In this document: positions 1 to 27,937 of the stretch, one piece after another | Position numbering within the stretch: the stretch's first letter is position 1 | How the letters are laid out: the number at the start of each line of letters is the position of its first letter | The notes under the pieces: model-generated | Databases searched by the model: none | What the model saw: the letters and a program-made list of their open reading frames with translations, nothing else | Told to the model about the DNA's origin: nothing | Assembly (NCBI GenBank): GCA_034428835.1 | Contig: DAOUHG010000265.1 | Span: forward strand, 1,400-65,399 | Source of the DNA: Dehalococcoidia bacterium | GTDB lineage: Bacteria > Chloroflexota > Dehalococcoidia > Lucifugimonadales > UBA1123 | DNA length: 64,000 bases | Reading direction: 5' to 3' | Translations under genes and position numbers: made by a program

Positions 1-2660
1 ATTCTCGAGTTGGGATCAAGGGCCGCGTTGGTCAAGAAGTTGGCCGCGTGCTCCTGGAGTTTAACGAACGGGACGAATATCTCACCGGCGCGCTGCCTCT
101 CTGTATAGACCGCTCGGGCCTCCAGGTCGCCGCGACGAGACCTGACTCTGATCCACTCACCATCTGGAATTCCGTACTTGTCACCGTCGGCTGGATTCAT
201 CCCCACAGTGAGTTCGGGGTCACGGGCCAGCAGGTTGTCCGCCCTCCTCGTAATTGTGCCACCGTGCCAGTGATAGAGAGTTCGGCCAGTGTTTAGGATT
301 AGTGGGAACCGCTTTGATGGAGCCTCATCCGCCACAGGTCCCTGATCAAATCCGACGAACTTGGCCCTCGGCCCACGCGGGAAGTCGGACTCGTACAGGA
401 AGCGAGTGCCGGGATGGTCGGGTTCCGGGCAAGGCCACTGAATTCCGCCCTCTTGCTCAAGCCGATCATAGGAGATACCTGCAATCATCGGCATGAGGGA
501 CGCCATTTCGTCGAATATCTCGGACGGATGACTGTAGTCGAATTCGTGCTCCAACTCAAGACCGAGGTTGGAGCTTAATCGCAGTGCGACGTCTCGGATA
601 ATCTCCCAGTCGGGTTTGCTCTCGCCAACGGGTTCGATCGCCTTACGGACGCGCTGCACACGTCGTTCGCTGTTGGTGAATGTGCCGTCCTTCTCGGCGA
701 AAGACGTAGCAGGCAGCACGACATCGGCGATCTGTGCAGTCTCGTGCATGAATATGTCCTGGACAACCAGGAAATCCAGTTTCTTAAACGTCTCTTCAGC
801 GTGATGGAGATCCGGTTCACTCAGCAGAGGGTTCTCTCCGGTAACGTACATCGCCCTGATCCGGCCTGAGTCCATTGCGGGAACCATCTCGGTAATTACC
901 AGTCCCGGCTCAGGAGGCAGGGCCTGATTGCTCCAGGCGCTCTGGAACTTTGCAAGAGACTCGTCGCCTATGGTCTGATACCCGGGTAGCGAGTTTGGCA
1001 GGCAACCTGAGTCGCCACATCCCTGAACGTTGTTCTGACCTCTGAGTGGGGAGATACCCGAACCAGGTCGGCCCAACTGTCCAGCGACGAAGGCGAGATT
1101 AAGTAGACCATGTGCGTTAGCCGTCCCCATAGTGTGCTGAGTTATGCCCATTCCCCAGATCAGACACGACCCGCTGAAGGGCGGGCTTGCGTAGATACGG
1201 GCTGCCTCGGCGATATCCTCAGCAGGAACTCCGGTGATCTTCTCAGCGTAGTCCAGATCGTACTTTTGGACCGTGCTCCACCATTCGTCGTACCCTTCGG
1301 TACGATCCGTGACGAATGAGTTGTCGGCAAGGCCTTCGTCCACGATGACCTTGGCCATGGCGTTGAGGAGCGCTACGTCTGTCCCCGGTCTCGGTCTGAG
1401 CCACAGGTCGGCGTAGTCACACATGTCGATCCTTCGGGGATTGATAATAATTAGCTTCGCGCCCCGTTCGACGACCGCGCGCCTCATTCTTGATGCCGCA
1501 ACAGGATGATTGGAATTCGCGTCTGAGCCTATGATTACAAGACAGCCCGACTCTTCGTAGTCGATGTATGAGTTGGAAGTCGCGCCGCTTCCGAGTGAGG
1601 TGAGCATAGCCTCGACAGACGGCGAGTGGCAGAGCCTCGTGCAGTGGTCGATGTGGTTGCTTCCCATCACGAGCCTGGCGAACTTCTGTTGAATGTAGCC
1701 ATCTTCATTCGTCGCCTTCGCTGAGGCAAGTGTACCGAAAGCGTCGCCGCGGTACTCTGACAGCCGCTCGGCTACGTAGTCGAGCGCCTCGTCCCACTCT
1801 ACTTCGACAAAGTCTCCGTTTTTTCGGATAAGTGGTTTCCTGATGCGGTCGGGATGGTTAACGAATGAGAAGCCGAATCTGCCCTTGACGCAAAGCATCC
1901 CCAGTGAGGACTGGTTTTCCGGGTCATCCAGTATCTCAATGATGTGGTCGTTCACGTCCACCTTAGCCTGGATGCCACAGCCCACTCCGCAGTACGGGCA
2001 GGTCGTCGCGACAGTACGGGCGGTCTCGGGAGGGTCGTTCTTGACTCGGATGGCGCCGGTTGGACATGAGGCGAGACAGGAGCCACAGGTGGTGCAAACG
2101 GATTCAACCAGCGGTCGATCCATGAACGTTCCTATTCTGGCCTCAGTGCCTCTGCCAAGAATGTCTATGGCTCCAATGAACTGATGTCCGTCCTGGCACG
2201 CTTGAGCGCACCGGCCACACATGATGCAAGAGTCCATCGCAATGTCGAACACGGGATTCGACACGTCGACTGGCTGGCGTGACCTGCCTTCCCACTTTGA
2301 AACGTCGATACCGTGGTGTTTGGCGGCAATAGACAACTCGCGATAGCTTCCGTTCGAGTTTTCGTCCGCATCCGGGAACATCGCCATCGTGAGCTCGAGG
2401 ACGCCGCGTCGCAGGTCCCTTGCCCTGTCGGTCTCTGTCTCAACGGACATCCCGTCAGCCGCCGGCACCGAACACGACGCCGGGAATCCTCGAACACCAT
2501 CAATGTTCACCAGGCAAGTCCTGCACGCGCCGATAGGCTTCATGTCAGGATCCTTGCAAAGCTGCGAAATGTAACTTCCCGACTGGTTGATGGCGTCCAG
2601 AACGGAAGAGCCGTCATTCACGGTGACCTGCTTGCCGTTGATTGAGAGAGTGACGCTCAT
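1..2660 (-). CDS. fdsA: NAD-dependent formate dehydrogenase catalytic alpha subunit (Mo/W-bis-PGD enzyme). The 3' end runs off the window, and it is absent from the ORF track because no stop lies inside the window.
   Basis: My own minus-strand translation from ATG at 2658-2660 gives MSVTLSINGKQVTVNDGSSVLDAINQSG... Motifs seen: GACRTCLV (2Fe-2S), CIMCGRCAQAC and CTTCGSCLASCP (4Fe-4S), TTCPYCGVGCG (MopB Fe-S), and active-site HCTRLCHSPSV with Cys (TGC), not Sec. The frame stays open to base 1. ATGA start/stop overlap with the upstream gene. Confidence 0.9.
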   Translation of the reverse strand, partial: MSVTLSINGKQVTVNDGSSVLDAINQSGSYISQLCKDPDMKPIGACRTCLVNIDGVRGFPASCSVPAADGMSVETETDRARDLRRGVLELTMAMFPDADENSNGSYRELSIAAKHHGIDVSKWEGRSRQPVDVSNPVFDIAMDSCIMCGRCAQACQDGHQFIGAIDILGRGTEARIGTFMDRPLVESVCTTCGSCLASCPTGAIRVKNDPPETARTVATTCPYCGVGCGIQAKVDVNDHIIEILDDPENQSSLGMLCVKGRFGFSFVNHPDRIRKPLIRKNGDFVEVEWDEALDYVAERLSEYRGDAFGTLASAKATNEDGYIQQKFARLVMGSNHIDHCTRLCHSPSVEAMLTSLGSGATSNSYIDYEESGCLVIIGSDANSNHPVAASRMRRAVVERGAKLIIINPRRIDMCDYADLWLRPRPGTDVALLNAMAKVIVDEGLADNSFVTDRTEGYDEWWSTVQKYDLDYAEKITGVPAEDIAEAARIYASPPFSGSCLIWGMGITQHTMGTANAHGLLNLAFVAGQLGRPGSGISPLRGQNNVQGCGDSGCLPNSLPGYQTIGDESLAKFQSAWSNQALPPEPGLVITEMVPAMDSGRIRAMYVTGENPLLSEPDLHHAEETFKKLDFLVVQDIFMHETAQIADVVLPATSFAEKDGTFTNSERRVQRVRKAIEPVGESKPDWEIIRDVALRLSSNLGLELEHEFDYSHPSEIFDEMASLMPMIAGISYDRLEQEGGIQWPCPEPDHPGTRFLYESDFPRGPRAKFVGFDQGPVADEAPSKRFPLILNTGRTLYHWHGGTITRRADNLLARDPELTVGMNPADGDKYGIPDGEWIRVRSRRGDLEARAVYTERQRAGEIFVPFVKLQEHAANFLTNAALDPNSR

Positions 2661-4249
2661 CTGCCCGCTCCTTGACGCCCAGCGATACGGTCACCGAAAA
2701 AGTACAGACCGCTAAGAATTGGATTGCCTGCCGCCTGGCCTAGTCCGCATAGCGAGGTCTCGTTAACGAGTCGTGCCAAGTCTTCCAACTCGTCTGGCGA
2801 GGCTCCTTCCTCTACAACAGCATCGAGAAGCGCAACCATCCGGGGTGTGCCTTCTCGACACGGTGTACACTTTCCACACGACTCGTCGGCATTATACTGC
2901 GCTAGATTGCGGACCACCTCAACAACGTCCATCGAGTCGTCGACTGCAATTACACCGCCAGCGCCGAGCATGACCCCCGAGCCGTGCAGGAAGCCCGGCT
3001 TGATCGGCGTTTCCAGCATGGAAGGTGGGAAGACGCCGCTGGAAGGTCCCCCGACGCCAATTGCGGTGAGCGTTCCGCCTCCGCGTATTCCACCGCCAAC
3101 ACCGTAGATTATATCGCGCAGTGTTGTACCGAATGGCACTTCAACTAGTCCTGGGCGCTCCACTGAACCGCTTAGACTGACTATCTTCGTGCCGGTGTCT
3201 TCGCCATCACCGATCGTTGCGAATTCGTCGGCGCCCCTGCTCAGAATCTGGGGGACGTTCGCTAGGGTCTCAGCGTTGTTGATTACGGTGGGAAGACCCC
3301 ACAAACCGGCCTCAGTCGGGTAGGGTGGTCGAAGTCTAGGCTCTCTGCGATAGCCCTCGATCGTGTTAAGCAGTGTCGTCTCATCTCCACAGACGTAGCC
3401 GCCGGCGCCACGGCGAATCTCAACGTGGACTTCGAACCCTGACCCGAGTACGTTCTTACCGATCAGGCCGAGGTGTGTTGCCTGCTCGATTGCCAAGGCC
3501 ATGCGCCGATTTGACAGATTGGCTTCGGCGTTTATGTAGAAGATGACGTCGTTGGCGTCGACGGCGTACGCCGCGATCAACGCGCCTTCGATAATCCTGT
3601 GAGGAACACCTTCCATGAGGTGGCGGTCTTTGAACAGCCCGGGCTCGCCTTCCTCGCAATTGACGACCACGTACCGGCGATCAGACCTGGTCCGCCTCGC
3701 GCCTTCCCACTTCACGCCGGCAGGGAAGTAGGCTCCGCCTCTACCCCTTATCCTTGAGGCCTTGATCTCTTCGATCACAGACTCTGGACTGGATTGCAGC
3801 GCATTTGACCAAGCTAAGTATCCCCCCGTCGCGAGATAGTGATCGATCGACTCAGCATCGAGCGAACCGCACCCTTCAAGGGAAACGCGCAACTGGGGGG
3901 ATAGGAATTCAGCGACCGCTGTTTCTTCGTCTGAGCTCGCACTTGCCAGATCTGTAAAGTCGAAAACGTCGGCTGACAGTCGTGAGAGGTAGAAGCGCTT
4001 GCCGCTTGTGGAAACTACTTCGAGAGATGGGGCGGCGAAGCATGCTCCGTCGCACCCTGCCACAATCAAAACTGCATCTTCGCCCATCTGCTGCCGGAAA
4101 CTATCGACAACATCGCCGGCGCCCGATGCCAGGGTGCAATGCCCGACATGGGCGATAACCCTAGTCTTGCCACTCACTCGTCCCTCGAATCGCTCTGTGG
4201 CAGACGCGACCAGAGTTTCCATCCTCGAGTGGATTTCAGCGTTACGCAC
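2657..4249 (-). CDS. fdsB: Formate dehydrogenase beta subunit, NuoF/HoxF-like (FMN/NAD/4Fe-4S), with an N-terminal thioredoxin-like extension
   Basis: ORF 2657..4339. Motifs GRGGAYFPAGVKW, ESCGKCTPCREG and SLCGLGQAAGNP. I prefer the GTG start at 4249 (GGAGGG 6 nt upstream); ATG 4222 or the track start 4339 remain possible. Confidence 0.85.
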   Translation of the reverse strand: MRNAEIHSRMETLVASATERFEGRVSGKTRVIAHVGHCTLASGAGDVVDSFRQQMGEDAVLIVAGCDGACFAAPSLEVVSTSGKRFYLSRLSADVFDFTDLASASSDEETAVAEFLSPQLRVSLEGCGSLDAESIDHYLATGGYLAWSNALQSSPESVIEEIKASRIRGRGGAYFPAGVKWEGARRTRSDRRYVVVNCEEGEPGLFKDRHLMEGVPHRIIEGALIAAYAVDANDVIFYINAEANLSNRRMALAIEQATHLGLIGKNVLGSGFEVHVEIRRGAGGYVCGDETTLLNTIEGYRREPRLRPPYPTEAGLWGLPTVINNAETLANVPQILSRGADEFATIGDGEDTGTKIVSLSGSVERPGLVEVPFGTTLRDIIYGVGGGIRGGGTLTAIGVGGPSSGVFPPSMLETPIKPGFLHGSGVMLGAGGVIAVDDSMDVVEVVRNLAQYNADESCGKCTPCREGTPRMVALLDAVVEEGASPDELEDLARLVNETSLCGLGQAAGNPILSGLYFFGDRIAGRQGAGR

Positions 4250-4718
4250 TGACTGCCCTCCGCACAATCTGCAGGGCAGACTCCCGGTCGACTCTACCAT
4301 GCCACTCGCCGTCGACCTCCATGGCGGGCGCCATAGCACAGAGAAAGCCGCATGGGACCTGCTCCAAGGTCAGCCTGCGATCTTCCGACGTCGATCCGGG
4401 AGAAACGTCAAACTCTGCGCCAAGCGCGTCCAGAATCTGGCTCGCCCCCGCTGTAGCACAACTCAGGGCCGTACATACTCGTACGACTGAGGTCCCTGCC
4501 TCTTCCAGCCGCAGCTCAGTGTACGAGGTTGCAGCACCGTACACTTCGGAAGACGGGATTCCCAGGTGCCAGCCCACAACTTCCATTGCCCAGTCCGGCA
4601 GGTGTCCAAACTCGTAATGAAGATAGTGCAGGGCGGGCAGGAGCTGGCCGTGGTCTCTCGGAAACCGTTCTCTTAGCTCACGTCGCAGCGCGTTTCGGTC
4701 TGTAGGCAATATAGACAC
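4242..4718 (-). CDS. fdsG: NuoE-like thioredoxin-fold [2Fe-2S] subunit (formate dehydrogenase gamma)
   Basis: 158 aa. Cys pattern VCTALSC ... PCGFLCAMAP is typical of the NuoE/HoxE family. Sits directly upstream of the NuoF-like gene in gamma-beta-alpha order. Confidence 0.8.
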   Translation of the reverse strand: MSILPTDRNALRRELRERFPRDHGQLLPALHYLHYEFGHLPDWAMEVVGWHLGIPSSEVYGAATSYTELRLEEAGTSVVRVCTALSCATAGASQILDALGAEFDVSPGSTSEDRRLTLEQVPCGFLCAMAPAMEVDGEWHGRVDRESALQIVRRAVSA

Positions 4719-4776: not shown

Positions 4777-6648
4777 CTATCCAGATGGCCGGCCATCGCT
4801 TGCTGTCGCTGCGGTCTCTTCCGGGGAGACCAGCTTGAGCAGCCCCAGTTCATCGAGCTTACTGCTGGGGATAGTACCATCGGGGTTCCATCCCCTCACC
4901 TGATAGTAAGACGTGACCATCATCTGGAGATCACCGTCTGACAGTCCCACTCCAGCAGCGGCACCGTCAGGAAGCGGCTCGGTCAGAACTCGTCGTGGCA
5001 GGGTGTCGTCAGCGCGCGTCCAACCCTCCCGAATGTTGAAGAGCTTCTTGAGGTTGTTGATTCTTTCGCCAGCCATCTTGAGCTCATCCGGTTGAACGTC
5101 CCAGCCTGTAATCAAGTTGAGCGAGTCGGCCGATTCGTTCCAGAAGTCGTCAAACGCTTTGCGAAGGAACTTGCACCATATCAGCGAGTCCAGCACAGCA
5201 GAGAAGTCCTCACCTTCAGCAGTGATACCTCCCCGCTGAGCATCGGCTTCCATTCTGTTGACAACGTTGGAAAAGTCCGCCTCGTATGCCGATGACCTGT
5301 TATGGCAGGCGCCCCGTGTGCTCACCGCCAACGCCAGTGCCATAGTCTGCAGACTTCTGGGTTCGTAGCCTGGCATCTCCAAGCCTTTGACTTGCATCGC
5401 CCAAGCCTCTGAACCTTGACCGACGATCTCAGCGGAGACCCTTGATCCTTCCGATAAGAGACGACCAAGATTACCAGATCGGGTAGCGATGGCTTCAAGA
5501 CAGGGGAGTAGGACCTCGGCGTTCCCAAACTTCAGGGCGAGACCATCCGTGTCGGTCAACGTCAGTATGCCTCGCTCAAAGCACTCCATTGCCCAGGCGA
5601 TCGTACCGCCCACACTGATAGTGTCCATGCCCACGGCATCACAGTAGTGCGACGCGCGGATGATGGTTTCTCGGTCTCCAATACCGACCAATGGGCCGAG
5701 AGCGAAAGCACTCTCGTACTCCATACGCCCGGTCGACTTGCCAGAACCGTCTCCAACTGTCAGGATTTTCTCACATCCAATCGTGCAGTTCGCGCAGTGA
5801 GCATTCTTGACGAAGTGGCCGCTATACATGGCCTCGCCACTCACATTGTCTGTCATTTCGAATGTGGACTGCTGGAAGTTTCGAGTCGGGAGCGTGCCGA
5901 GCCTGTCGAATACGGCGAGGTTCGCCATTGTGCCGGTAGTCCGGTACTTCTCGGTGGCCGGCCCCAAGCTTCGGGCAGACAAGTCGCGACCGACTTCATT
6001 GAGCCGTTCGGCATCGAAAACAGGCGCTGGGTTACGACCTCTCACTGCGATAGCCTTGAGGTTCTTCGACCCCATCACGGCGCCCGTCCCTGTCCGACCA
6101 GCCTGACGTCCACCGTCGTTTGCGATGCTCGCGTACCGCACCCCGCTCTCGCCCGCGGGGCCTATGCAGGCAACCCTGAACCTGCGTCCCAGGTTGTTCT
6201 TGACTGCTTGCTCGGTGTCGTAAGTGCTCATACCCATCAGGTCGGAGGCATCGAGGAAGCGCACATCGTCGTCTTCCAAGAATAGCAGGGTAGGATGGTC
6301 ACTCCGGCCCACGACCACGAGCGCGTCGACCCCGATCCTCTTGAGCTCGACCGCCAGAAAGCTGGAACTGAGGGAGTCGCCGATCATACCCGTCAACGGC
6401 GACTTTGCCGCCACCGCGAATTTACTGGACGTGGTCAATCTGCTGCCAACCAGCGGACTGCACGCGAAGACCAGTGGGTTCTCTGGCCCCAGTGGGTCAG
6501 CGCCCGGTGGGCAGTGAGTGTACAGAAGATAGCTGGCTAGCCCAGTTCCTCCTATGAAACGTCTAAGTATCCGCTCGTCCAATGGCTCTCTGCGGGCCGT
6601 GCGCGCCGAGAGGTCTACGACGAGGCCGACACCGTGGTAACCGAACAA
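4777..6648 (-). CDS. aor: Aldehyde:ferredoxin oxidoreductase family (tungstopterin enzyme)
   Basis: 623 aa. N-terminus MFGYHGVGLVVDLS...RFIGGTGLASYLLY and Fe-S motif HCANCTIGCEK give an AOR-family look throughout. TTG start lies 7 nt after GGAGG. Confidence 0.85.
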   Translation of the reverse strand: MFGYHGVGLVVDLSARTARREPLDERILRRFIGGTGLASYLLYTHCPPGADPLGPENPLVFACSPLVGSRLTTSSKFAVAAKSPLTGMIGDSLSSSFLAVELKRIGVDALVVVGRSDHPTLLFLEDDDVRFLDASDLMGMSTYDTEQAVKNNLGRRFRVACIGPAGESGVRYASIANDGGRQAGRTGTGAVMGSKNLKAIAVRGRNPAPVFDAERLNEVGRDLSARSLGPATEKYRTTGTMANLAVFDRLGTLPTRNFQQSTFEMTDNVSGEAMYSGHFVKNAHCANCTIGCEKILTVGDGSGKSTGRMEYESAFALGPLVGIGDRETIIRASHYCDAVGMDTISVGGTIAWAMECFERGILTLTDTDGLALKFGNAEVLLPCLEAIATRSGNLGRLLSEGSRVSAEIVGQGSEAWAMQVKGLEMPGYEPRSLQTMALALAVSTRGACHNRSSAYEADFSNVVNRMEADAQRGGITAEGEDFSAVLDSLIWCKFLRKAFDDFWNESADSLNLITGWDVQPDELKMAGERINNLKKLFNIREGWTRADDTLPRRVLTEPLPDGAAAGVGLSDGDLQMMVTSYYQVRGWNPDGTIPSSKLDELGLLKLVSPEETAATASDGRPSG

Positions 6649-7605: not shown

Positions 7606-9564
7606 TTAGGTCTGACTACCACAAATTGTCAATTTGAGACTACCCATTTTCCCGGTGTCGTAGCCTCCAAGCGCTTCGACCTCAATTCGGAATTCGGGAG
7701 AACGAATCAGATCCATCATAGGCCTCAATAAATCTGACTCGTAGAACTCGACCGGAATGACCAGGTCGTACTCCTCGCTGAACAGTGGGATAAAGTCGAG
7801 GTCCATTGCACGTGCCGCCGGTAGAATGCCCAGGCCCGTGTCCGCCTTGTCGCCACTAACAGCAGCAGCGACGGCCAGATGCGTATATTCCTCCCGGTTG
7901 TACCCTTTTACTTCGCCCGCATCAATACCCGCCCGGCGCAGCTCGTAGTCGAGCAGGACGCGGGTCCCTGAGCCTCTTTGACGATTGACGAACCTGACGT
8001 CAGGCCTTGACAGGTCGGCCAAGGATGACACATCCAGAGGATCCCCACGTTTGACCATCAAGCCCTGAGTTCTCGCTGCCAAATGGACGAGAGCGACTCT
8101 TCTATTTGGGATGTATCTCCTGATGTACGAAACGTTGTACTCGCCTGATTCCTCGTCCATCAGGTGCGTGCCCGCAATGTGGGCCTCGCCCCTTCTAATT
8201 GCCAACAGCCCTCCCATGCTGCCGACATTGGCTGATGCCAGTCCCGGACCTCCGGACGTCCGACTAAGACGACTAGCTATCAGGTCCAGCACCATATCGT
8301 GACTTCCGATAGCAACGATCGTTCTTAGCACCTCCTCAATAGGTTTGAGAAGCTGAACCTTCACCTCTGCCCCAGCCTCCAGACCCTCGACGGATCTTGG
8401 AATGAGCGTCAGGCCATCTGCCCTGACCAGGGAACTGATGACGCCGGCTCCACGCTGGACCGGGGTGGCCACCAGTCTGTCGCCTACCTGTCCGAGACGG
8501 ACCCTCAGGAACTCGTCCTCTCCCATGGGAGACTGGACTCGACGAGTAATGATTGCCTTGACATTCGGCCTGGGGGGGACGTTCTTCCCCAGCATCGCCT
8601 CCACGACCGGTTGGACGAATAGCTCACAGGCTATTGCCGCGGACACCGGGTATCCCGGTATTCCAATGACGGCGTTGCCATCTATGACGCCAAGGACGAT
8701 CGGGTGCCCAGGCCTTATTGCGACCCCGTGGACCACCAGAGTGCCGAGTTCTTCGACTATGCCGGCAGTATAGTCTTCGGTTCCCGCCGAAGAGCCCGCG
8801 TTGACAAGCACGATGTCGAACTGGTCGACCGCCGTTGAGATCGCGCGTCGGAGCATGTCGGGATCGTCTGAAACCGGGGCAAACCTAACCGGATCAGCTC
8901 CCCACTCTCGGAGCATTCCTCCCAACACCAGCGAATTGAACTCCACAATATCGCCCGGTTTGGGATCGGCGTCGATGTCCACCAGTTCCGTCCCCGTCGG
9001 GATAATCGCGACACTGGGTTTTCGCCGGACATCTACTTTGGTCACGCCGGCTGCGGCGCACGCTCCAAGATCGGCGGGGCGAAGCCTGTGATTCTCGGGG
9101 AGCAAGAGCTCAGAGGCTACGATGTCTTCCCCAAGTGCCCTTACGTGATTGTAGGGAGGAACAGGTGAGGTGATCTGAATCGTCGATTCGTCGATCTCCT
9201 GTACGACCTCGATCATAATGACCGCGTCAAATCCGTCAGGCACCGGCTCGCCAGTGTCCACCCATCGTGCCTGGTCGGGTAGGGTGAGCACTCGTGGCGA
9301 TGTCTCAGTCGCGCCTGCTGTATCTCGCGAAAGAACTGCCACGCCGTCCATGGCCGCCGAGTCATAGTGGGGTGCAGATCTGGCTGCCCAGACGGGTGTA
9401 GCCGTTATCCTACCGAGAGCATCCTGAATTGGTACCGTCTCGGTTTCCGTATGTCGCACGGAACCCGCGTCAGACAGCGCCTTCCAGTATCGAGCCTTGG
9501 CTTCATCCAGTGGAACGTCCTGGAGATAGTAGCGTCTGCCCTGTCGACCACGACCATGGGTCAT
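7606..9564 (-). CDS. moeA: MoeA-type molybdopterin metal-insertase fused to a C-terminal periplasmic-binding-protein-like (PBP-like) domain
   Basis: 652 aa. MoeA motifs SAAMDGVAV, PTGTEL and GIPGYPVSAAI, followed by a roughly 230-aa PBP-like tail (IVAIGSHDMVLDL...FVNRQRGSGTRVLLD). Confidence 0.8.
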   Translation of the reverse strand: MTHGRGRQGRRYYLQDVPLDEAKARYWKALSDAGSVRHTETETVPIQDALGRITATPVWAARSAPHYDSAAMDGVAVLSRDTAGATETSPRVLTLPDQARWVDTGEPVPDGFDAVIMIEVVQEIDESTIQITSPVPPYNHVRALGEDIVASELLLPENHRLRPADLGACAAAGVTKVDVRRKPSVAIIPTGTELVDIDADPKPGDIVEFNSLVLGGMLREWGADPVRFAPVSDDPDMLRRAISTAVDQFDIVLVNAGSSAGTEDYTAGIVEELGTLVVHGVAIRPGHPIVLGVIDGNAVIGIPGYPVSAAIACELFVQPVVEAMLGKNVPPRPNVKAIITRRVQSPMGEDEFLRVRLGQVGDRLVATPVQRGAGVISSLVRADGLTLIPRSVEGLEAGAEVKVQLLKPIEEVLRTIVAIGSHDMVLDLIASRLSRTSGGPGLASANVGSMGGLLAIRRGEAHIAGTHLMDEESGEYNVSYIRRYIPNRRVALVHLAARTQGLMVKRGDPLDVSSLADLSRPDVRFVNRQRGSGTRVLLDYELRRAGIDAGEVKGYNREEYTHLAVAAAVSGDKADTGLGILPAARAMDLDFIPLFSEEYDLVIPVEFYESDLLRPMMDLIRSPEFRIEVEALGGYDTGKMGSLKLTICGSQT

Positions 9565-10799
9565 GACCGGTGAATCCTGACCTTGACTGTGTCCCCCGCG
9601 TAGATCCCACCGGAGTCTATCGGGACTCTGATGATTCCATCGGATCTAATCAGGGTATAGATCAGGTTCGACTTCCCGAATACGGGAGTCGCGTGACAGC
9701 AGCCCGCGTCCCATGAAAGCGCTACAGGTACGTAGTCTTCGCGGCCAGATTCGGATGGCACATCCTGCGTCAGGACTGCTGTTACCTCTGGGATTATCAG
9801 GGCGCCCGTCTCTCCAGATAGCACTCGAATCGCCGGGGCGACGAGGAGGTCGAAAACGATGAGGGCGGATACCGGGTTGCCTGGCAGGCCAAACAGAGGC
9901 TTTCCGTCTGCTGCTCCAACGACGGTCGGTTTCCCCGGCTTGATCGAGATTCCGTGCAGAAGCACGCCCGGCTTTCCAAGCTGATTGAAGACATCAGCGG
10001 TCATGTCTCTAGTGCTCAGAGAGCTGCCTGCAGAGAATACCAACACGTCCGACGACTCCAGACCGGCAAGCGCAGCTTCCAACTGCGGCATATATTCATC
10101 GCGGGCTATATCCATAGCAAGATAGTCTGCTCCGCACTGAACAGCACGTGCCGCGATTGTGTAGGTGTTGATATCCCGAATCTTTCCGCTGGCGGGCTGA
10201 GCTGCGGGATGGGTGAGCTCGTCACCGGTAGAGACTATCGCGACTATCGGTCTTCGATAGACTGGTATGCCGACGATGCCGAGGGCCAGAAGCCCTCCGA
10301 TGTCCTGGGGACGAATTCGATGTCCCGCTCGAAAGAGAAGTTCGCCGCTGTGAACATCCTCCGCCACGTGGATGACGTTCTCACCCGGCGCGACGGGTCT
10401 GAGTACTTCTATGGATACTTCGTCGGCGGGCTGGGTTCTCTCGATCATTACGACCGCGTCTGCCCCTTCGGCTAGCGTACCGCCGGTGTAGGCAACCGCC
10501 GCCTCTCCGACTCCGACGCCAGCGTTGGAGGACTTGCCTGCGGGAATGTCCGCTACAATCTCGAAGAGAGCGGGCAGGCTTTCGGACGCTCCAAAAGTAT
10601 CGCTTGCGCGCACCGAAAAGCCGTCCATGGATGACCTCGGGAACGCGGGCAGGTCCTCTGGCGAGTGAATGTCGTGCGCTATCACACGTCCCAGAGCGTG
10701 CTCAGTCTCTAGGGTCTCGATGTCCGAAACGGGAACAAGGTGGGGCAGCAGGTCATGGAACGCCTGCTCGGGAGACCGGACATTGAAGAAATCAGGCAC
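9561..10799 (-). CDS. moeA: Molybdopterin molybdenum/tungsten transferase MoeA
   Basis: 412 aa. Motifs RSSMDGFSV, STGDEL and GLPGNPVSALI. 4-nt overlap with the downstream moeA-PBP gene. Confidence 0.85.
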   Translation of the reverse strand: MPDFFNVRSPEQAFHDLLPHLVPVSDIETLETEHALGRVIAHDIHSPEDLPAFPRSSMDGFSVRASDTFGASESLPALFEIVADIPAGKSSNAGVGVGEAAVAYTGGTLAEGADAVVMIERTQPADEVSIEVLRPVAPGENVIHVAEDVHSGELLFRAGHRIRPQDIGGLLALGIVGIPVYRRPIVAIVSTGDELTHPAAQPASGKIRDINTYTIAARAVQCGADYLAMDIARDEYMPQLEAALAGLESSDVLVFSAGSSLSTRDMTADVFNQLGKPGVLLHGISIKPGKPTVVGAADGKPLFGLPGNPVSALIVFDLLVAPAIRVLSGETGALIIPEVTAVLTQDVPSESGREDYVPVALSWDAGCCHATPVFGKSNLIYTLIRSDGIIRVPIDSGGIYAGDTVKVRIHRS

Positions 10800-10966: not shown

Positions 10967-12592
10967 TTACAGGCCAAGAATCGCCCCTTCGTCGTCCACG
11001 TCGAGCTGACGAGGCGAGCCCGGGAGACCGGGCATCGTGACGATGTTGCCCGCGATTGGATAAATGAACCCTGCGCCGACAGAGGCACGAACGTCGGAAA
11101 TCTGGAACGTGTATCCAGACGGACGCCCCTTCAGCGTCGCCCGGTGCGAAATCGACAGGTGGGTCTTCGCCATGCACACTGGCAGGTTGCCCCATCCCCT
11201 TTCTTGGAACTGTCGGAGCTGTCGGCCTGCGGCCAACACGTACGACACCCTCTCGGCGTTGTAAACGCGCTTCGCAAGTGCGAGCACCTTGTCCCGGAGC
11301 GTTGCGTCAATCTCATACGCGTAGTCGATTTCCGGGTGGTCGTCAGCGCTTGTTGCTTCAATAACGGCATTGGCCAGGTCAATACCACCAGCACCGCCTT
11401 CAGCGAATACCTTGCTTTCCACAGCTGCAAAAGCTCCAGCCTCTTCTGCGCCGCGCTTCAAGATTGCTGTCTCTTCAGGGGCGTCAGTCGGGAAGTGGTT
11501 GAGCGCGACGACGACGGGCAGGTTGAAAGACCGAATCATTCCGATTAGGTGTGTCAGATTGGACATGCCTTTCTCAACGGCCTGGGTATTTGGGACTTCC
11601 AAATCCCGCACTCTAACACCGCCGTGGTACTTGACCGCTCGAACCGACGCTACTATTACCGCAGCGTGTGGTTCCAGACCGTTAAATCTTGCCTTTATGT
11701 GCATGAATTTCTCGAAGCCAAGGTCGGCTCCGAACCCGGCTTCGGACAGGACGTAGTCAGCGTAGCCGAGCGCGAGTCTGTCTCCGACCACGGACGAGCA
11801 GCCGTGTGCAATGTTTCCGAAGGGCCCGGCATGAACGATCACGGGCTGGCCCTCGGTCGTCTGAACGATGTTGGGCTGGATCGCGTATCTGAGCAATGAC
11901 ATCATCGAGCCGACGGCTTCGACGTCATTGGCAGTTACGGGATCTCCCTGGTTCGTGTATCCGACGACGACACGGCTGATTCGCGCTCGCAGATCAGCCA
12001 GGTCGCGTGACAGCGCCAGTATGGCCATAATCTCGGAGGCGGTCACTATGTCGAAGCCGCTCTCACGCACGGGCGCATTGTTCGGACCGCCAACGCCCGT
12101 CATGATTGACCGGAGCGCTCGGTCCTCTACGTCAGTCACGCGCCTCCAGCTGATCCCCTCCGGTCTGAAACCATCTATCCGCCCTCGCTGCGCGGCGTTG
12201 TCGGTCAACGCTGCCAGAAGGTTGTGCGCAGAACCGACGGCGTGGGCATCCCCGGTGAAGTGTATGTTGACCTCATCTTCGGGTTCGATGAGGCTCTTGC
12301 CGCCGCCCGTTCCGCCGCCCTTAATGCCAAAAATCGGGCCGAGCGAAGGTTCTCTGAGAGTTGCGACTACGTTCTTACCCAGGCGCCCCATGGCTTGAGT
12401 AAGTCCAACGGTCGTCGTAGTCTTTCCTTCCCCCGCAGGAGTGGGCGTAATGCCCGTTACGACGACCATTTTGCCCCGTCGCCCGTTGTCTCTTATGGCA
12501 TCCAGAGGTATCTTTGCCTTGTAATGCCCGTAGGAAATTATTGAGTCGCGGGCCAGTCCGAACTCCTCTGCGACGTCTACAATAGGGCGCAT
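10967..12592 (-). CDS. fhs: Formate--tetrahydrofolate ligase
   Basis: 541 aa. Motif TPAGEGKTTTTVGL and an FTHFS-like sequence along the whole length. ATG lies 7 nt after GGAGG. Confidence 0.9.
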   Translation of the reverse strand: MRPIVDVAEEFGLARDSIISYGHYKAKIPLDAIRDNGRRGKMVVVTGITPTPAGEGKTTTTVGLTQAMGRLGKNVVATLREPSLGPIFGIKGGGTGGGKSLIEPEDEVNIHFTGDAHAVGSAHNLLAALTDNAAQRGRIDGFRPEGISWRRVTDVEDRALRSIMTGVGGPNNAPVRESGFDIVTASEIMAILALSRDLADLRARISRVVVGYTNQGDPVTANDVEAVGSMMSLLRYAIQPNIVQTTEGQPVIVHAGPFGNIAHGCSSVVGDRLALGYADYVLSEAGFGADLGFEKFMHIKARFNGLEPHAAVIVASVRAVKYHGGVRVRDLEVPNTQAVEKGMSNLTHLIGMIRSFNLPVVVALNHFPTDAPEETAILKRGAEEAGAFAAVESKVFAEGGAGGIDLANAVIEATSADDHPEIDYAYEIDATLRDKVLALAKRVYNAERVSYVLAAGRQLRQFQERGWGNLPVCMAKTHLSISHRATLKGRPSGYTFQISDVRASVGAGFIYPIAGNIVTMPGLPGSPRQLDVDDEGAILGL

Positions 12593-22512: not shown

Positions 22513-24558
22513 TTAACGCAGATAGTCTGCCATCATGGTGTCGAGATCGTTCGTCGGAAGCTGGCAAGTATAGTTGCGGCAAACATAGGCTGTCGGTCGG
22601 CCGTCAATAGGCGTCCGTCCCAAGAACACGGGCCACTCGCCTGCCGGGCTATCTGAGTCAGATTTAGCTACCACGACCGCAGTAGGCTGGTACGCCGATG
22701 CCAGACGTCTCAGCATCGAGAGAGGAGAGCCTGCTTCCTGATCGGTTACGACCACGGCTTCTTTAGAGTCCGATAGATAGCCGTCCAGGGCGCACAGCCA
22801 GTGTCCTGCTCCAGTCGGGAACTGCTCCATGATGCCGCGCACGCCACGGAGCGACTGGGCCGCTATCGTTCTGAGGTCCGCGTCGCCCGTCATGACAGCC
22901 AGCCGATTAAGGACATCGGCCATCGCGGAGTGGCCGGACGGCAGAGCGTTGTCGGTAACGTCACGGGGCCGCACAATCAGGGCCTCCTGATCGCTCCCAG
23001 TGTCGTAAAACTGGCCCCCCTGAGAGTCCAGGAAGAGGTCGAGAGCGCTCCTGACCAGCTTCTCAGCCTCGATGAGCCACCTAGAGTCGCCATCAGCGCT
23101 GTGCAGCACCAACAGCCCGTCGATGAGCGCGGCGTAGTCGTCGAGGAAGCCGCGCGAACCGTTCTCGGAGTTGCTGTCCGTTCTTCGCAGCCTCCCGGCC
23201 TTCATCATCCGATCAAGCAAGTATGTGGCGTTGGTCTGGGCGACTTGCAGGTAGTCGTCTCGCTCAAATACAGCCGAGGCCTCGGCGATCGCCGCAAGCA
23301 TCAGACCGTTCCAGGACGTAATGATCTTTGTGTCCGTCATTGGCGGCACACGTAATGACCGCTCCTCGAAAAGCCTTTGGTTGGCAGTGTCAATAAGACT
23401 TTCGAGTTGGTCCGTAGTTAATGAGTGTCGTGCAGCAACGTCAGCGGGGACGGATGGCACGTTCAGTATGGACATGCCCTCGAAGTTGCCTGCGTTGGAA
23501 ACTCCGTAGTAGTCCGCGACGACTGCGGCATCGTCGGCTCCCAAGACGTCAATCAGATGCTCGGGTCTCCACACAAAGAACTTGCCCTCGACACCCTCAC
23601 TGTCGGCGTCTTGGGCCGAGTAGAAGCCACCCTCGGGCGAGGTCATCTCCCGGACAACATAGTTGATGATCCGCTCGGCTGTGCGGCGATACTGGCCGTT
23701 GGCCGTCACCTGGAAGGCGTGGGTATAGAGACGGGCGAGCAGTGCGTTGTCGTAAAGCATCTTCTCGAAGTGAGGCACAAGCCAGAATGCGTCAGTCGAG
23801 TACCGGTGGAATCCTCCGCCTATCTGGTCGTGGATTCCGCCGGACGCCATCTTGTCAAGAGTGAACTCCACCATCTCCAGCGCTAGCGGGATGCCGGTTC
23901 TTGCGTGGAAACGGAGCAAGAACTCGAGGGTGGTTGGCTGAGGAAACTTGGGCTGAAGTCCAAAGCCGCCGGATCGTTCGTCGAACTGAGGTAAGGCAGA
24001 ATCAAATGCGGCTCGGAGAATTGCTTCAGTCAGAGGCTCTTGTCCGGAATCAGCAGTGTATGCCTGCCTGAGACGTGCGACCAACTGCTGCCCACTATTG
24101 AGGACATCAGAGCGTCGTGACTGGTAAGCCTCAGAGATCGCCTCCAAGACACGGACGAAGGAAGGAAGCCCGCCCCTATCCTCTGGCGGAAAGTAGGTCC
24201 CTCCGTAGAATGGCTCGCCTTCCGTGGTCAGGAATACGGTCATCGGCCATCCGCCATGACCGGTCATTGCCTGTACTGCTGTCATGTAGACGGAGTCAAC
24301 ATCCGGGCGTTCTTCTCGATCAACCTTGATATTGACGAACATCCTGTTCATCCTGTCAGCGATGTCTTGGTCCTCGAACGACTCGCGCTCCATGACGTGG
24401 CACCAGTGGCATGACGAGTACCCTACACTCAACAGAATGGGAACGTCTCTATTGCGCGCGGACTCAAATGCTTCCGCGCCCCATGGGTGCCAATCCACCG
24501 GGTTCTCCGAATGTTGAAGGAGATATGGACTCGTCTCCTTCGCCAGTCTATTGGTCAT
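22513..24558 (-). CDS. Thioredoxin-domain protein of the DUF255/YyaL type (Trx-like N-domain plus six-hairpin glycosidase-like domain)
   Basis: 681 aa. N-terminus [25 protein letters not shown]...[19 protein letters not shown]. Confidence 0.8.
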
Positions 24559-24567
24559 GGCAGTGCG

Positions 24568-26052
24568 CTAGAGTCCCGTGACATCAAGGGTGGTGATCTG
24601 CATTGAACCCATATCGGCTACCCGGATGGCGTGATTGTTGGTGTCGGCTATGTAGAACTTGGCATTGAATGCGCTTATTCCAGCCGGCTCGAAGAACGAG
24701 GCTACGCCGGCGGCACCATCTTCGTGCCCGCTAGCCCCGGATCCGAACACCGATTGGCAGGCTCCGGAGACAGGTTCCAGTCGCTTAATCTTGTTGTTGT
24801 ACGTGTCTGCTATCCAAAGCGAGCCGTCGTAGAGTTCTACGCCTATAGGGTGCTGCAGCCTCACGTCTTTGCCTATTCCGTCTACATCCCCGAACGTAAA
24901 CAGATCGAGACCCACTATTGAGCTCACACTGCCCATAGGATCGACGGTCGCCGATCGTATGGAACTGGTCTCACTGTCAGCGAAGAGAAGTGTATGGCCA
25001 TCGCTCGCGATTCCACTGGGCTGCGCAAGCTCTGCCTGCGCCAGAGGGCCATCTTTGATGCGCTCCCTGCCATTGCCTGCATGGACAGACGTTTCTCTGG
25101 TGTTCAGATCAAGCTTCCAGAGTTGGTGGAAACCAGCCATCGCTATATATAGATGGTTATCTACTTTGACAACGTCCCACGGAGAACTGAGCGCTACGAA
25201 TCGTCCATTGCCACCCGGGTGGAATCCTCGAGATTGTAGACCAGTCCCCGCGAGTGTCATGACAGTTAGGGATTCCAGGTCGATCTGCCGAATCGCGTGA
25301 TTCTTGGTGTCCGCAACATACAGGTGGGGCCAGTCGAGGTCGCATCCCTGCGGATCGTAGAATCTGGCCTCATCGGCTGAGCCGTCTTTGAGTCCGCGCT
25401 CCCCGCCCCCTATGACTGCCTTGACACTACCGTCGAGACCTGTCCAAACGATTCTGTTGTGGTTCGAGTCAGAGATGAAGAGCCCATGTTCCGAGGCCAG
25501 GACCTTACCTGGGAATGACAGAGGTCTCTGCCACTCCTTGGAGCTCTCCAGAGCGAAGTCGAGGGGACGCCGGTCGATCTGGCCCGCACGGTCATACTCC
25601 TCGACCATCGTACCTAACAGATTGTCCAGCGCTTCTATCGGGAACTCACCCTCGTGCTTGCCAATGACTTTGCCGTCAGGGCCAATGAACATGAAGGTGG
25701 GCCAGGCGCGGACAGCGTACTGCTGCCAGACCATGAAGTCAGCATCGTTGATGACAGGGTGCTCGATCTCGTATCTGAGAATCGCGCGGCGGACGTTGTC
25801 CGTGGATTTCTCTGCATTGAACTTGGCAGAGTGGACGCCAACGACAGCCAGCTCACCCGCGTACTTTTGCTCCAGTTTCCGCAACTGCGGAAATACGTGC
25901 ATGCAGTTAATTCAACAGTACGTCCAGAAGTCGAGAATGAGTATCTTGCCATTGAAGTCGGCTAGTTGCAGCGGGCGCTCCGTGTTGAGCCAGTCCAGCG
26001 TGGGAGGGAAGTCTGGCGCGTTTACTGTGCCTGCGAACTTTCGTGGACTCAT
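24568..26052 (-). CDS. Thioredoxin-fold (redoxin) plus NHL-repeat beta-propeller protein; candidate selenoprotein with UGA (25912-25914) read as Sec
   Basis: Track ORFs 25912..26103 and 24568..25902 share one frame and are separated only by TGA. Read-through gives ...[27 protein letters not shown]... followed by NHL-like repeats ([50 protein letters not shown]). The likely start is ATG 26052; GTG 26103 is possible. Confidence 0.75.
25876..25893 (-). promoter_or_regulatory. SECIS-like hairpin downstream of the in-frame UGA
   Basis: The mRNA reads UGA-N18-UUUCCGC-AGUU-GCGGAAA: a perfect 7-bp stem and a 4-nt loop containing GU. The loop lies 26-29 nt after the UGA. Confidence 0.55.
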
Positions 26053-26105
26053 TTCATCAATCCCTGCTACTGAAGTACGACAGCAATGCGGCCCCGGGGC
26101 CACTG

Positions 26106-26777
26106 CTATTCAATGCTATTCATGGGCCACTGTTCGAGATTATACGCCATAGTCCAGAACATGTGCTCATACTGCACGCTTGTGAGGTAGGCAGCAGTCA
26201 TCCGGTCGCGCATGTCAGGTCCGGCAGTGTGTGCCAGGTCGTCCAGCAGGTCACTCCAAGCCCGGGTGCTTGCCTCGAGGATACCCTCAGAGTAAGTAGA
26301 CTGCCACATTCTGAAGACTGGATGATCCGGTTCACTCAGGATTTTTCCCACCTCGTGGTAGATACGAGGGCAGGGGAGCAGTGCTGCAACACCGCACGCC
26401 ATACCATCGACCCGCATGGCAACTTCCATATGATTCTGGTACGCGAGATTGGTAGGGGCTGGCCCACTGAGGGAAACTACGCCAGTTGTCACACCGAGGG
26501 CATCAAACAGTCTGCCATGGAGTGGACGCTCTACCGGCGTGGTGACTCTCTTAAGAAGTCGTCTAGCAGTCTCCGTGTCTGGAGCCGAAGACAGCGCGGC
26601 CGCAGCAGAGCGTCCAAAGCCCGCCAGATAGTGATAGTCCTGCAATATATAGAACCTGAACTTCTCTATCGGCAATGTGCCTGCTTCCAACTCTTCTAAG
26701 AATGGATGCCGCTTGATCGCGTTCCACACCGGGTTTGCAAGTTCCCAAAGATAGTCGCTGAAAGTCTGTTCACTCAT
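26106..26777 (-). CDS. tenA: TenA-family thiaminase II / aminopyrimidine aminohydrolase
   Basis: 223 aa. Sequence [46 protein letters not shown]. Confidence 0.8.
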
Positions 26778-27328: not shown

Positions 27329-27937
27329 TCAGATACCACCCTGGCGAACCGACGCGGTCGAGAACCATATTACAGTCAATGGCGCCTTCTTCAGGACGCG
27401 CGCGGAGGTAATTTCAGTCCCATGGACTCTTGCCTCGGTAGTCAGTCTACGCTGCAAAAGCTTTCCAACCGGACGACTCAGGACGCTCGCCGTGACGAGA
27501 CCCACCACGGCGCCGCGGACGCGAGGCCAGAAGCCACGCCCTTGGCCTGCAATGAGAGCGGCAACCCCGCCGAGCAACGCAGCGGCAACGAAATTTGTGC
27601 CGCAGTATGAAGACACAGCCAGATCCGAGTGACCCTCCTTCAATAGAAGCAGAGCGTCTTCGGCAGCATCCAACACTGCACTATCAGGTGCTTTCGCCCA
27701 GATAATGAAACCGGAGGGGAGGGAGTACCCGCCCAGCGGGGGCGCAGTGCCGCGTTCCAGCAGAACCGCAACGGTGGCGTGTTCCAAGGCGTGATTCTTG
27801 CGGACTCTGTCAATTCCTGCAATCGGCAAATCCAATTCCTCCCAGTCTGCTATGTGCTGTAGCGCGAACCTAGCACATATCTCTTTACTTCGACCACCAA
27901 GTGAAACATTAGTGTGCCCGCTGTGCCGCCCTAGCAA
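27329..27937 (-). CDS. Hypothetical protein with an HALEH motif and a hydrophobic C-terminal half
   Basis: ORF of 202 aa from TTG 27937. TTG 27829 (GGGAGG 8 nt upstream) would give 166 aa starting (M)PIAGIDRVRKNHALEHATV. I recognise no family with confidence. Confidence 0.5.
   Translation of the reverse strand: MLGRHSGHTNVSLGGRSKEICARFALQHIADWEELDLPIAGIDRVRKNHALEHATVAVLLERGTAPPLGGYSLPSGFIIWAKAPDSAVLDAAEDALLLLKEGHSDLAVSSYCGTNFVAAALLGGVAALIAGQGRGFWPRVRGAVVGLVTASVLSRPVGKLLQRRLTTEARVHGTEITSARVLKKAPLTVIWFSTASVRQGGI

Follow-up and report, generated by a model that had tools for sequence, protein, structure and literature searches.

A candidate selenocysteine-containing relative of NHLRC2 and SOQ1, with a conserved SECIS-type hairpin, in Dehalococcoidia

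Results and Discussion

The DNA analyzed here, hereafter the window, is a stretch of 64,000 nucleotides from a Dehalococcoidia bacterium (assembly GCA_034428835.1, contig DAOUHG010000265.1, positions 1,400 to 65,399), which carries on its minus strand a gene for a thioredoxin-like protein with an NHL-repeat propeller in which codon 47 is UGA. Comparative sequence analysis makes it highly likely that this codon is decoded as selenocysteine (Sec) by means of the gene's own selenocysteine insertion sequence (SECIS), at the catalytic Cys position of a bacterial relative of NHLRC2 and SOQ1. The TGA is, on the same evidence, very probably a real selenocysteine codon that is accompanied by a conserved RNA hairpin. 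A preliminary description of this DNA had proposed a candidate Sec-containing thioredoxin/NHL-repeat protein, and that proposal is now supported by alignment with Cys homologues, by the co-conservation of TGA and hairpin, by covariation within the hairpin, and by coding selection upstream of the TGA. The gene and its parts are as follows.

24568–26052, minus strand: read-through gene, 494 codons plus stop (ATG at 26052–26050, stop at 24570–24568)
25912–25914, minus strand: in-frame UGA, the proposed Sec codon (codon 47, U47), aligned with the first Cys of CxxC
25903–25905, minus strand: TGC for C50, the putative resolving Cys of U-I-N-C, from sequence and translation
25915–25917, minus strand: TGT for C46, an extra Cys ahead of the motif (the first C of CCINC), from sequence and codon analysis
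25876–25893, minus strand: bacterial SECIS-type hairpin (5' arm UUUCCGC, 25893–25887; loop AGUU, 25886–25883; 3' arm GCGGAAA, 25882–25876)
25666–25950, minus strand: thioredoxin-like domain (TlpA-type, Thioredoxin_8, PF13905), residues 35–129, 2.2e-15, spanning the UGA
24574–25527, minus strand: NHL-repeat beta-propeller, approximately residues 176–493 (Pfam NHL, 2.4e-18; aligns with 7DJM and 6G7W)
24568–25902, minus strand: 444-residue open reading frame (ORF) from the Met four codons past the UGA, a probable artefact of gene callers
26052–25912, minus strand: separate 46-residue ORF, likewise a probable gene-caller artefact

An in-frame UGA at a redox center

Read on the minus strand, the region of interest is TAC TGT TGA ATT AAC TGC ATG CAC GTA TTT CCG CAG TTG CGG AAA CTG GAG. 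Translation of 26103–24568 on this strand gave a single internal stop, the TGA at 25914–25912, and the gene was placed at 26052–24568, with 494 codons, because homologues begin at the Met of MSPRKFAG. TGA terminates 18 of the 48 long ORFs in the window, and UGA is therefore an ordinary stop codon in this genome, without genome-wide reassignment of the code. Pfam domains were identified with Cys substituted at the internal stop of the read-through protein; no NCBIfam model reached its cut-off with this protein, and no selenoprotein model was among those matched.

Ten full-length Cys homologues align with the read-through protein from residue 1, and the TGA falls on the second C of their CCINC motif or, counted within C-I-N-C, on the first Cys. 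The Cys at position 50 is invariant in all of the sequences analyzed, 39 Sec forms and 25 Cys forms. The preliminary description had taken the TGA as the sole break between two ORFs in the same frame, had placed it at the nucleophilic Cys of a CxxC center, and had given CCINC as the reading of related proteins; translation and alignment agree with it on all three counts.

Co-conservation of the TGA and the hairpin

The critical codon was read directly in 81 sequences, comprising 80 species-representative genome loci (cited by L numbers) and the window. TGA was found in 40 of these, the window included, and TGC or TGT in another 40, while L075 was unscorable for both codon and hairpin. The TGA forms are mostly from Dehalococcoidia, with single representatives in Rokuibacteriota (L036), Dormiibacterota (L052) and Chloroflexia (L054). 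The hairpin was present in 40/40 TGA forms versus 0/40 Cys forms of this set, and the Cys forms encode I/L-P-D-L-K-K/R where the Sec forms have F-P-Q-L-R-K. Metagenomes were also scanned with a pattern composed of the motif and the hairpin, with the critical codon left free, and this recovered 120 contigs (88 distinct sequences), every one of which has TGA at that codon. Whether orthologues keep both the TGA and the hairpin had been named in the preliminary description as a check on the proposal; both are kept in 39 other species-level genomes and in the 120 metagenome contigs.

In public databases these genes are annotated in two pieces. Gene callers working on public contigs report a 46-residue ORF followed by an ORF of 444–446 residues, and the shortened products carry the GenBank label "alkyl hydroperoxide reductase" (446 residues). 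Among the best 120 matches in a search of 5.8 billion proteins, about 100 are 440–447 residues long, start at the Met after the TGA, and range in identity from 100% to 61%; the full-length proteins among these 120 are mostly Cys forms with identities of 60% or less. The Met chosen by the gene callers is missing from 6 of the 39 Sec forms, which have GCC, GCG, GTC, CTG or TTG instead, and re-initiation at this site is therefore not conserved. The 36 codons upstream of the UGA have an amino acid identity of 0.69, with nucleotide identities of 0.82 at positions 1 and 2 and 0.47 at position 3, a pattern that matches the part of the gene downstream. The 46 codons ahead of the UGA are thus under protein-coding selection, and the gene is therefore not a truncated one.

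One Cys homologue merits separate description. Protein P0041, 60% identical to the window protein, is encoded in L090 (L090:383–1876) by a continuous ORF of 497 codons with TGC at the Sec position, and this locus keeps the exact TTTCCGCAGTTGCGGAAA hairpin (approximately 515–560) as well as the downstream gene for a YyaL-like protein that is described below for the window. It looks like a recent Sec-to-Cys reversion that has retained a fossil SECIS. The continuous ORF of L090 also demonstrates that the halves annotated separately elsewhere belong to one protein.

The hairpin as a probable bacterial SECIS element

The stem begins after a gap of 18 nt from the UGA, and the gap between UGA and loop is 25 nt, so that the loop occupies nucleotides 26–29. 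In the bacterial SECIS (bSECIS) model of Zhang and Gladyshev (summarized in PMC13188914) the distance from UGA to loop is 16–37 nt and the minimum free energy (MFE) lies below -7.5 kcal/mol. The window hairpin agrees with the published model in all four respects, having a 4-nt loop with G at its second position followed by U, a 7-bp stem, a distance of 25 nt, and an MFE of -9.3. This is the perfect 7-bp hairpin that the preliminary description had located 18 nt past the UGA with its loop at 26–29 nt; its coordinates (25893–25876) were found to be the same, and the claim that its geometry is that expected of a bacterial SECIS holds against the published model.

Codon usage within the hairpin is unusually constrained. 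Codons +7 to +12 (TTT CCG CAG TTG CGG AAA) are near-invariant at synonymous sites in the Sec set, with CCG in 38/39 sequences, CAG in 39/39, TTG in 39/39 and CGG in 38/39; invariant G, H, S, T and D residues nearby use two to four codons each. At third positions the pairwise identity reaches 0.93 within the hairpin, as against 0.47 for the 36 upstream codons and 0.48 for 108 downstream codons. Across the alignment of 39 sequences, 99.2% of stem cells are paired, and double-sided changes occur in three of the seven base pairs: U-A is replaced by C-G at the base of the stem in L034, L036 and L037, and L054 has three pairs that differ. The observed values for pairing and covariation were reached by none of 500 shuffles, pairing was abolished when partner columns were shifted, and RNAalifold applied to the 39 genomes returned exactly this helix and nothing else. 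The hairpin is, by these comparative measures, selected at the nucleotide level as RNA. Its apex, GC-AGUU-GC, formed by the loop and the two base pairs next to it, is invariant, which suggests a lineage-specific mode of recognition by SelB.

The sole Chloroflexia Sec form (L054, 3139–3198) has a diverged stem, GGUGC-AGUU-GCGUC, that includes two G-U pairs; it retains the invariant GC-AGUU-GC apex, and the distance to the UGA is unchanged. We also observed that AACUGC, the Asn and Cys codons that follow the UGA (25903–25908), is complementary to GCAGUU (25883–25888, minus strand), which comprises the end of the 5' arm and the loop; counted from the U of UGA these segments are nucleotides 7–12 and 27–32. 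The alternative helix that they could form excludes the SECIS hairpin and is the MFE structure in several orthologues (L007, L020, L046 and L054), and there is no variation at the sites involved.

Evidence against Sec decoding, and alternative explanations

Several results weigh against the interpretation of codon 47 as Sec. Folded on its own, the window hairpin shows no stability beyond that expected by chance (MFE -9.3 kcal/mol, z = -0.71, with 42 of 200 shuffles as stable), so the case for its significance is entirely comparative, and Rfam gave no match to a SECIS or any other family, either over the whole window at the gathering threshold or over 25780–25980 at E <= 10. A neighbor-joining tree placed the Sec forms in one deep clade, and the association between TGA and hairpin therefore counts as a single evolutionary event that has long been maintained, not as 40 independent events. 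L090 shows that the hairpin can persist without the UGA. Searches of the window and of the loci from 80 genomes and 120 metagenome contigs, about 1.4 Mb in total, yielded no selA, selB, selD or tRNA-Sec gene; they combined ARAGORN on the window, Pfam on its ORFs, and tblastn with E. coli SelA, SelB and SelD together with ARAGORN on all loci. ARAGORN identified only two tRNA-Arg genes and one tRNA-His gene in the window. A further selenoprotein gene was sought in the window and in all loci, and these scans returned only out-of-frame noise. The alpha subunit of a formate dehydrogenase encoded in the window (1–2660, minus strand) uses Cys, in the motif HCTRLCHSPSV, where Sec-type enzymes have U. 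That this enzyme is of the Cys type, and that the window has neither sel genes nor tRNA-Sec, had both been stated in the preliminary description, and our readings concur.

The single SelB-like match, in L150, proved to be EF-Tu, adjoining NusG. At the level of the class, two metagenome-assembled genomes of Dehalococcoidia are among the ten bacteria richest in selenoprotein genes, with 46 and 49 (BSepDB paper, PMC13326102), a richness that supports the Sec trait for the class as a whole (PMC13326102) and only at that level.

Three explanations other than Sec were considered. Downstream structures can stimulate read-through in other systems, and the hairpin might likewise promote read-through of the UGA with a standard amino acid, for example by near-cognate Trp or Cys; the Sec machinery missing from the loci searched would favor this explanation. 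However, the UGA lies exactly at the catalytic Cys of a CxxC center, where the inefficient insertion of a residue without redox function would ruin the active site, and where TGC would be the better codon if Cys were the residue required. The loop content, stem length and spacing of the hairpin fit a SelB-type SECIS model, and selenoproteins are known to be numerous in the lineage. We consider read-through without Sec improbable.

A split or truncated gene, from which a 46-residue peptide and a 444-residue protein starting at the ATG four codons on would be made separately, or a pseudogene, is less probable again. This is how gene callers and GenBank annotate the locus, and the ATG four codons past the TGA is present in 33 of the 39 Sec-form genomes. 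But the 444-residue product would be missing the entire redox motif together with the initial strands of the thioredoxin fold, the 36 upstream codons share the coding constraint of the downstream part over 40 species, the ATG is replaced in the remaining 6 of the 39, and the Cys revertant L090 encodes one continuous ORF of 497 residues. A pseudogene, for its part, would not retain one and the same stop codon, together with its frame and the hairpin, across 40 species and 120 contigs.

An error of sequencing or assembly that put TGA in place of TGC or TGT, with the hairpin a by-product of the peptide FPQLRK, is scarcely credible and is refuted by the comparative data: TGA and TGC differ by one base and L090 does have TGC with the same hairpin, but TGA recurs in 120 metagenome contigs and in 40 genomes that were assembled independently, many as complete chromosomes from long reads, only one of the thousands of synonymous codings of FPQLRK is used, pairing is retained where the peptide changes, and the Cys forms encode the different peptide given above at this site.

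Relationship to NHLRC2 and SOQ1

Among solved structures, those nearest to the proposed selenoprotein belong to Arabidopsis SOQ1 (lumenal region, 7DJJ, E 3e-123) and human NHLRC2 (6GC1, E 8e-103), with which residues 11–493 align and both of which read LDFWTYCCINCMHV (CCINC) at the redox motif. Residues 175–493 match crystal structures of constructs limited to the NHL propeller (7DJM and 6G7W). The position of the putative Sec corresponds to C431 of SOQ1 and C90 of NHLRC2. The resemblance extends over the full length of the window protein and includes the shared LDFWTYC-x-INCMH motif and the same order of domains. In the NHLRC2/SOQ1 family the motif is written more generally as CC(I/V)NC, and a thioredoxin-like domain is joined to an NHL propeller. 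The TlpA-type thioredoxin-like domain would bear C-U-I-N-C within LDFWTYCUINCMH, a context identical to that of SOQ1 and NHLRC2, and the NHL propeller, six-bladed in the family, follows it directly, as judged from the Pfam NHL match and the alignment with 6G7W and 7DJM.

The C-terminal beta-stranded domain with its second Cys pair, also characteristic of the family, is missing: the window protein ends just after the propeller, at residue 494, whereas Cys homologues of 624–687 residues have this domain. Bacterial homologues are reported to be mostly without it (Biterova et al., PMC6107167), and the domain is therefore not defining for the bacterial branch. In SOQ1 the C-terminal domain is the site of the second Cys pair and of the reported methionine sulfoxide reductase (Msr) activity. 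The window protein differs further from the SOQ1/NHLRC2 comparison set in that it has neither a HAD domain nor a transmembrane helix, that a signal peptide is not evident, and, if our reading of codon 47 is right, that Sec stands in for Cys.

Residues 89–93 make up the motif in NHLRC2, where it is located at the N-terminal end of a helix of the thioredoxin fold and points toward the propeller (PMC6107167). C431 and C434 of SOQ1 are each essential for function, C431 in planta, and the C-terminal domain has been proposed as the partner of C431 in a mixed disulfide (bioRxiv 2021.03.16.435614). Msr activity has been reported for the lumenal domains of SOQ1, with the thioredoxin-like domain supplying electrons (2024 preprint). 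The redox role of NHLRC2 and SOQ1 is debated, with classical thioredoxin activity found in neither protein and Msr activity only recently proposed for SOQ1.

A Pyrinomonadaceae/Acidobacteriota group of Cys forms (L051, L057–L059, L061, L062, L064–L069, L071, L072 and L074, with the motif near 3100–3200) reads YGCINC, with Gly in place of C46. The first Cys of CCINC is therefore dispensable, and the invariant element is the C/U-x-x-C pair.

A proposed mechanism

The features described above suggest how the gene might be expressed and how its product might act. Standard bacterial Sec insertion is the likeliest route of expression. With the UGA in the ribosomal A site, SelB-GTP carrying Sec-tRNASec would bind the hairpin at its GC-AGUU-GC apex and deliver Sec in place of termination, giving a product with a U47-I-N-C50 center instead of C-I-N-C. 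By analogy with the chemistry of the families involved, Sec47 would be the attacking nucleophile on a substrate disulfide, a sulfenate or a partner protein, and Cys50 would resolve the resulting selenenylsulfide. The redox center would be situated at the N-terminus of the thioredoxin-fold helix, facing a cleft shared with the NHL propeller, which presumably holds a protein substrate. The activity is likely to be the reduction of protein disulfides or sulfenates, or else the donation of electrons to a methionine-sulfoxide-reducing step like that reported for SOQ1.

Comparison with known selenoproteins

An in-frame UGA with a stem-loop immediately 3' of it, inside the coding sequence, is also the arrangement of the intragenic SECIS elements of E. 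coli fdhF and fdnG, although the sequence of the window hairpin is unrelated to theirs. Among proteins, the closest parallels are the Sec-containing TlpA/ResA-like oxidoreductases of the Sargasso Sea and Global Ocean Sampling (GOS) catalogues, which belong to the thioredoxin-fold superfamily and have Sec at the first position of UxxC; the catalogue names compared were "Thiol-disulfide isomerase-like protein", "Prx-like thiol:disulfide oxidoreductase" and "Redoxin family protein". A member of the "thiol-disulfide isomerase-like" family described in 2005 (Zhang et al.) aligns, U against U, with the thioredoxin domain of the window protein at 25% identity over 95 residues (E 3e-4). Unlike the window protein, members of that family are small, consist of a single domain with the motif W-U-x-x-C, and have no NHL propeller; membership in it was ruled out by the low identity and by the differences in architecture and motif.

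The strings "UINC", "UVNC" and "FPQLRK" were absent from the supplements of the Sargasso and GOS catalogues. Full-text searches of the literature and the tables of selenoprotein catalogues gave no mention of a Sec-containing NHL, NHLRC2 or SOQ1 protein, a search whose scope did not extend to BSepDB, which may file the family under a generic name, and the papers on NHLRC2 and SOQ1 drawn on here make no mention of selenocysteine. A UxxC selenoprotein with a canonical SECIS is a classical bacterial pattern; it is the family that appears not to have been described as such before.

We lean, with some reserve, toward a broader interpretation, which is that these genes represent an uncatalogued selenoprotein family, the Sec form of NHLRC2/SOQ1, that shares one SECIS across Dehalococcoidia (including marine lineages of the SAR202 type) and a few other phyla, that has been systematically misannotated as a 46-residue ORF and a truncated "alkyl hydroperoxide reductase", and that marks human C90 and SOQ1 C431 as the catalytic nucleophile. 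The last element follows from the expectation that Sec replaces only catalytic redox Cys; the nucleophile would then be the Cys in second place in CCINC (human C90, SOQ1 C431), in a family linked to human FINCA disease.

If these interpretations are correct, hundreds of database entries are truncated and misnamed, the true product being a selenoprotein of 494 residues, and the selenoproteome of Dehalococcoidia would gain a widespread multidomain family, in a class that is abundant in the oceans, in soils and in the subsurface. The highly conserved SECIS, with its GC-AGUU-GC apex, could seed a lineage-specific search model. A natural Cys-to-Sec swap at the position of C431 and C90 would be independent evolutionary evidence for redox catalysis by that residue, and the Sec form could provide a more reactive natural variant for the biochemistry of NHLRC2 and SOQ1.

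Genomic neighborhood

The gene immediately downstream of the NHLRC2-like gene encodes a second thioredoxin-domain protein.

22513–24558, minus strand: YyaL/SPATA20-like thioredoxin-domain gene (Thioredox_DsbH and Thioredoxin_7 domains, CHWCH motif), 9 nt past the stop of the read-through gene

This adjacency is kept in the closest subclade (L001–L003, L005, L007, L010–L012, L050 and L086–L090) and is not kept in deeper genomes of the Sec clade. The two genes are part of a same-strand cluster (22513–26777, minus strand) of TenA, the NHLRC2-like gene and the YyaL/SPATA20-like gene, followed by subunits of a GlcD/E/F-type oxidase; the cluster from TenA to GlcD/E/F is kept through the closest order (L086–L090), with an acetyltransferase or an ABC transporter inserted in some genomes. 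Because the cluster is not conserved over the whole Sec clade, a functional tie to the YyaL-like protein is offered as a suggestion.

The formate dehydrogenase belongs to another minus-strand cluster in the window (1–2660, 2657–4339, 4777–6648, 7606–10799 and 10967–12592), the members of which are the alpha subunit of the Cys-type formate dehydrogenase, truncated by the window edge, a NuoF-like subunit, an aldehyde:ferredoxin oxidoreductase, two MoeA proteins and a formate-tetrahydrofolate ligase. The molybdo- or tungsto-enzyme of this window is thus Cys-based, though the genome appears to use Sec elsewhere.

Two public contigs closely match the window, and one of them (L082, ena:ERZ28763718:ctg125485) is probably from the same genome. 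The first, of 130 kb (L081), encodes an identical 444-residue protein, and its identity to the window is only 98.9%; a DDE transposase lies in its 1.56-kb insertion (L081:6408–7964), which is absent from the window at 27931–27934. The second, L082, is a 2.58-Mb contig in ENA, in which the 21.3 kb that were compared have 99.97% identity to the window.

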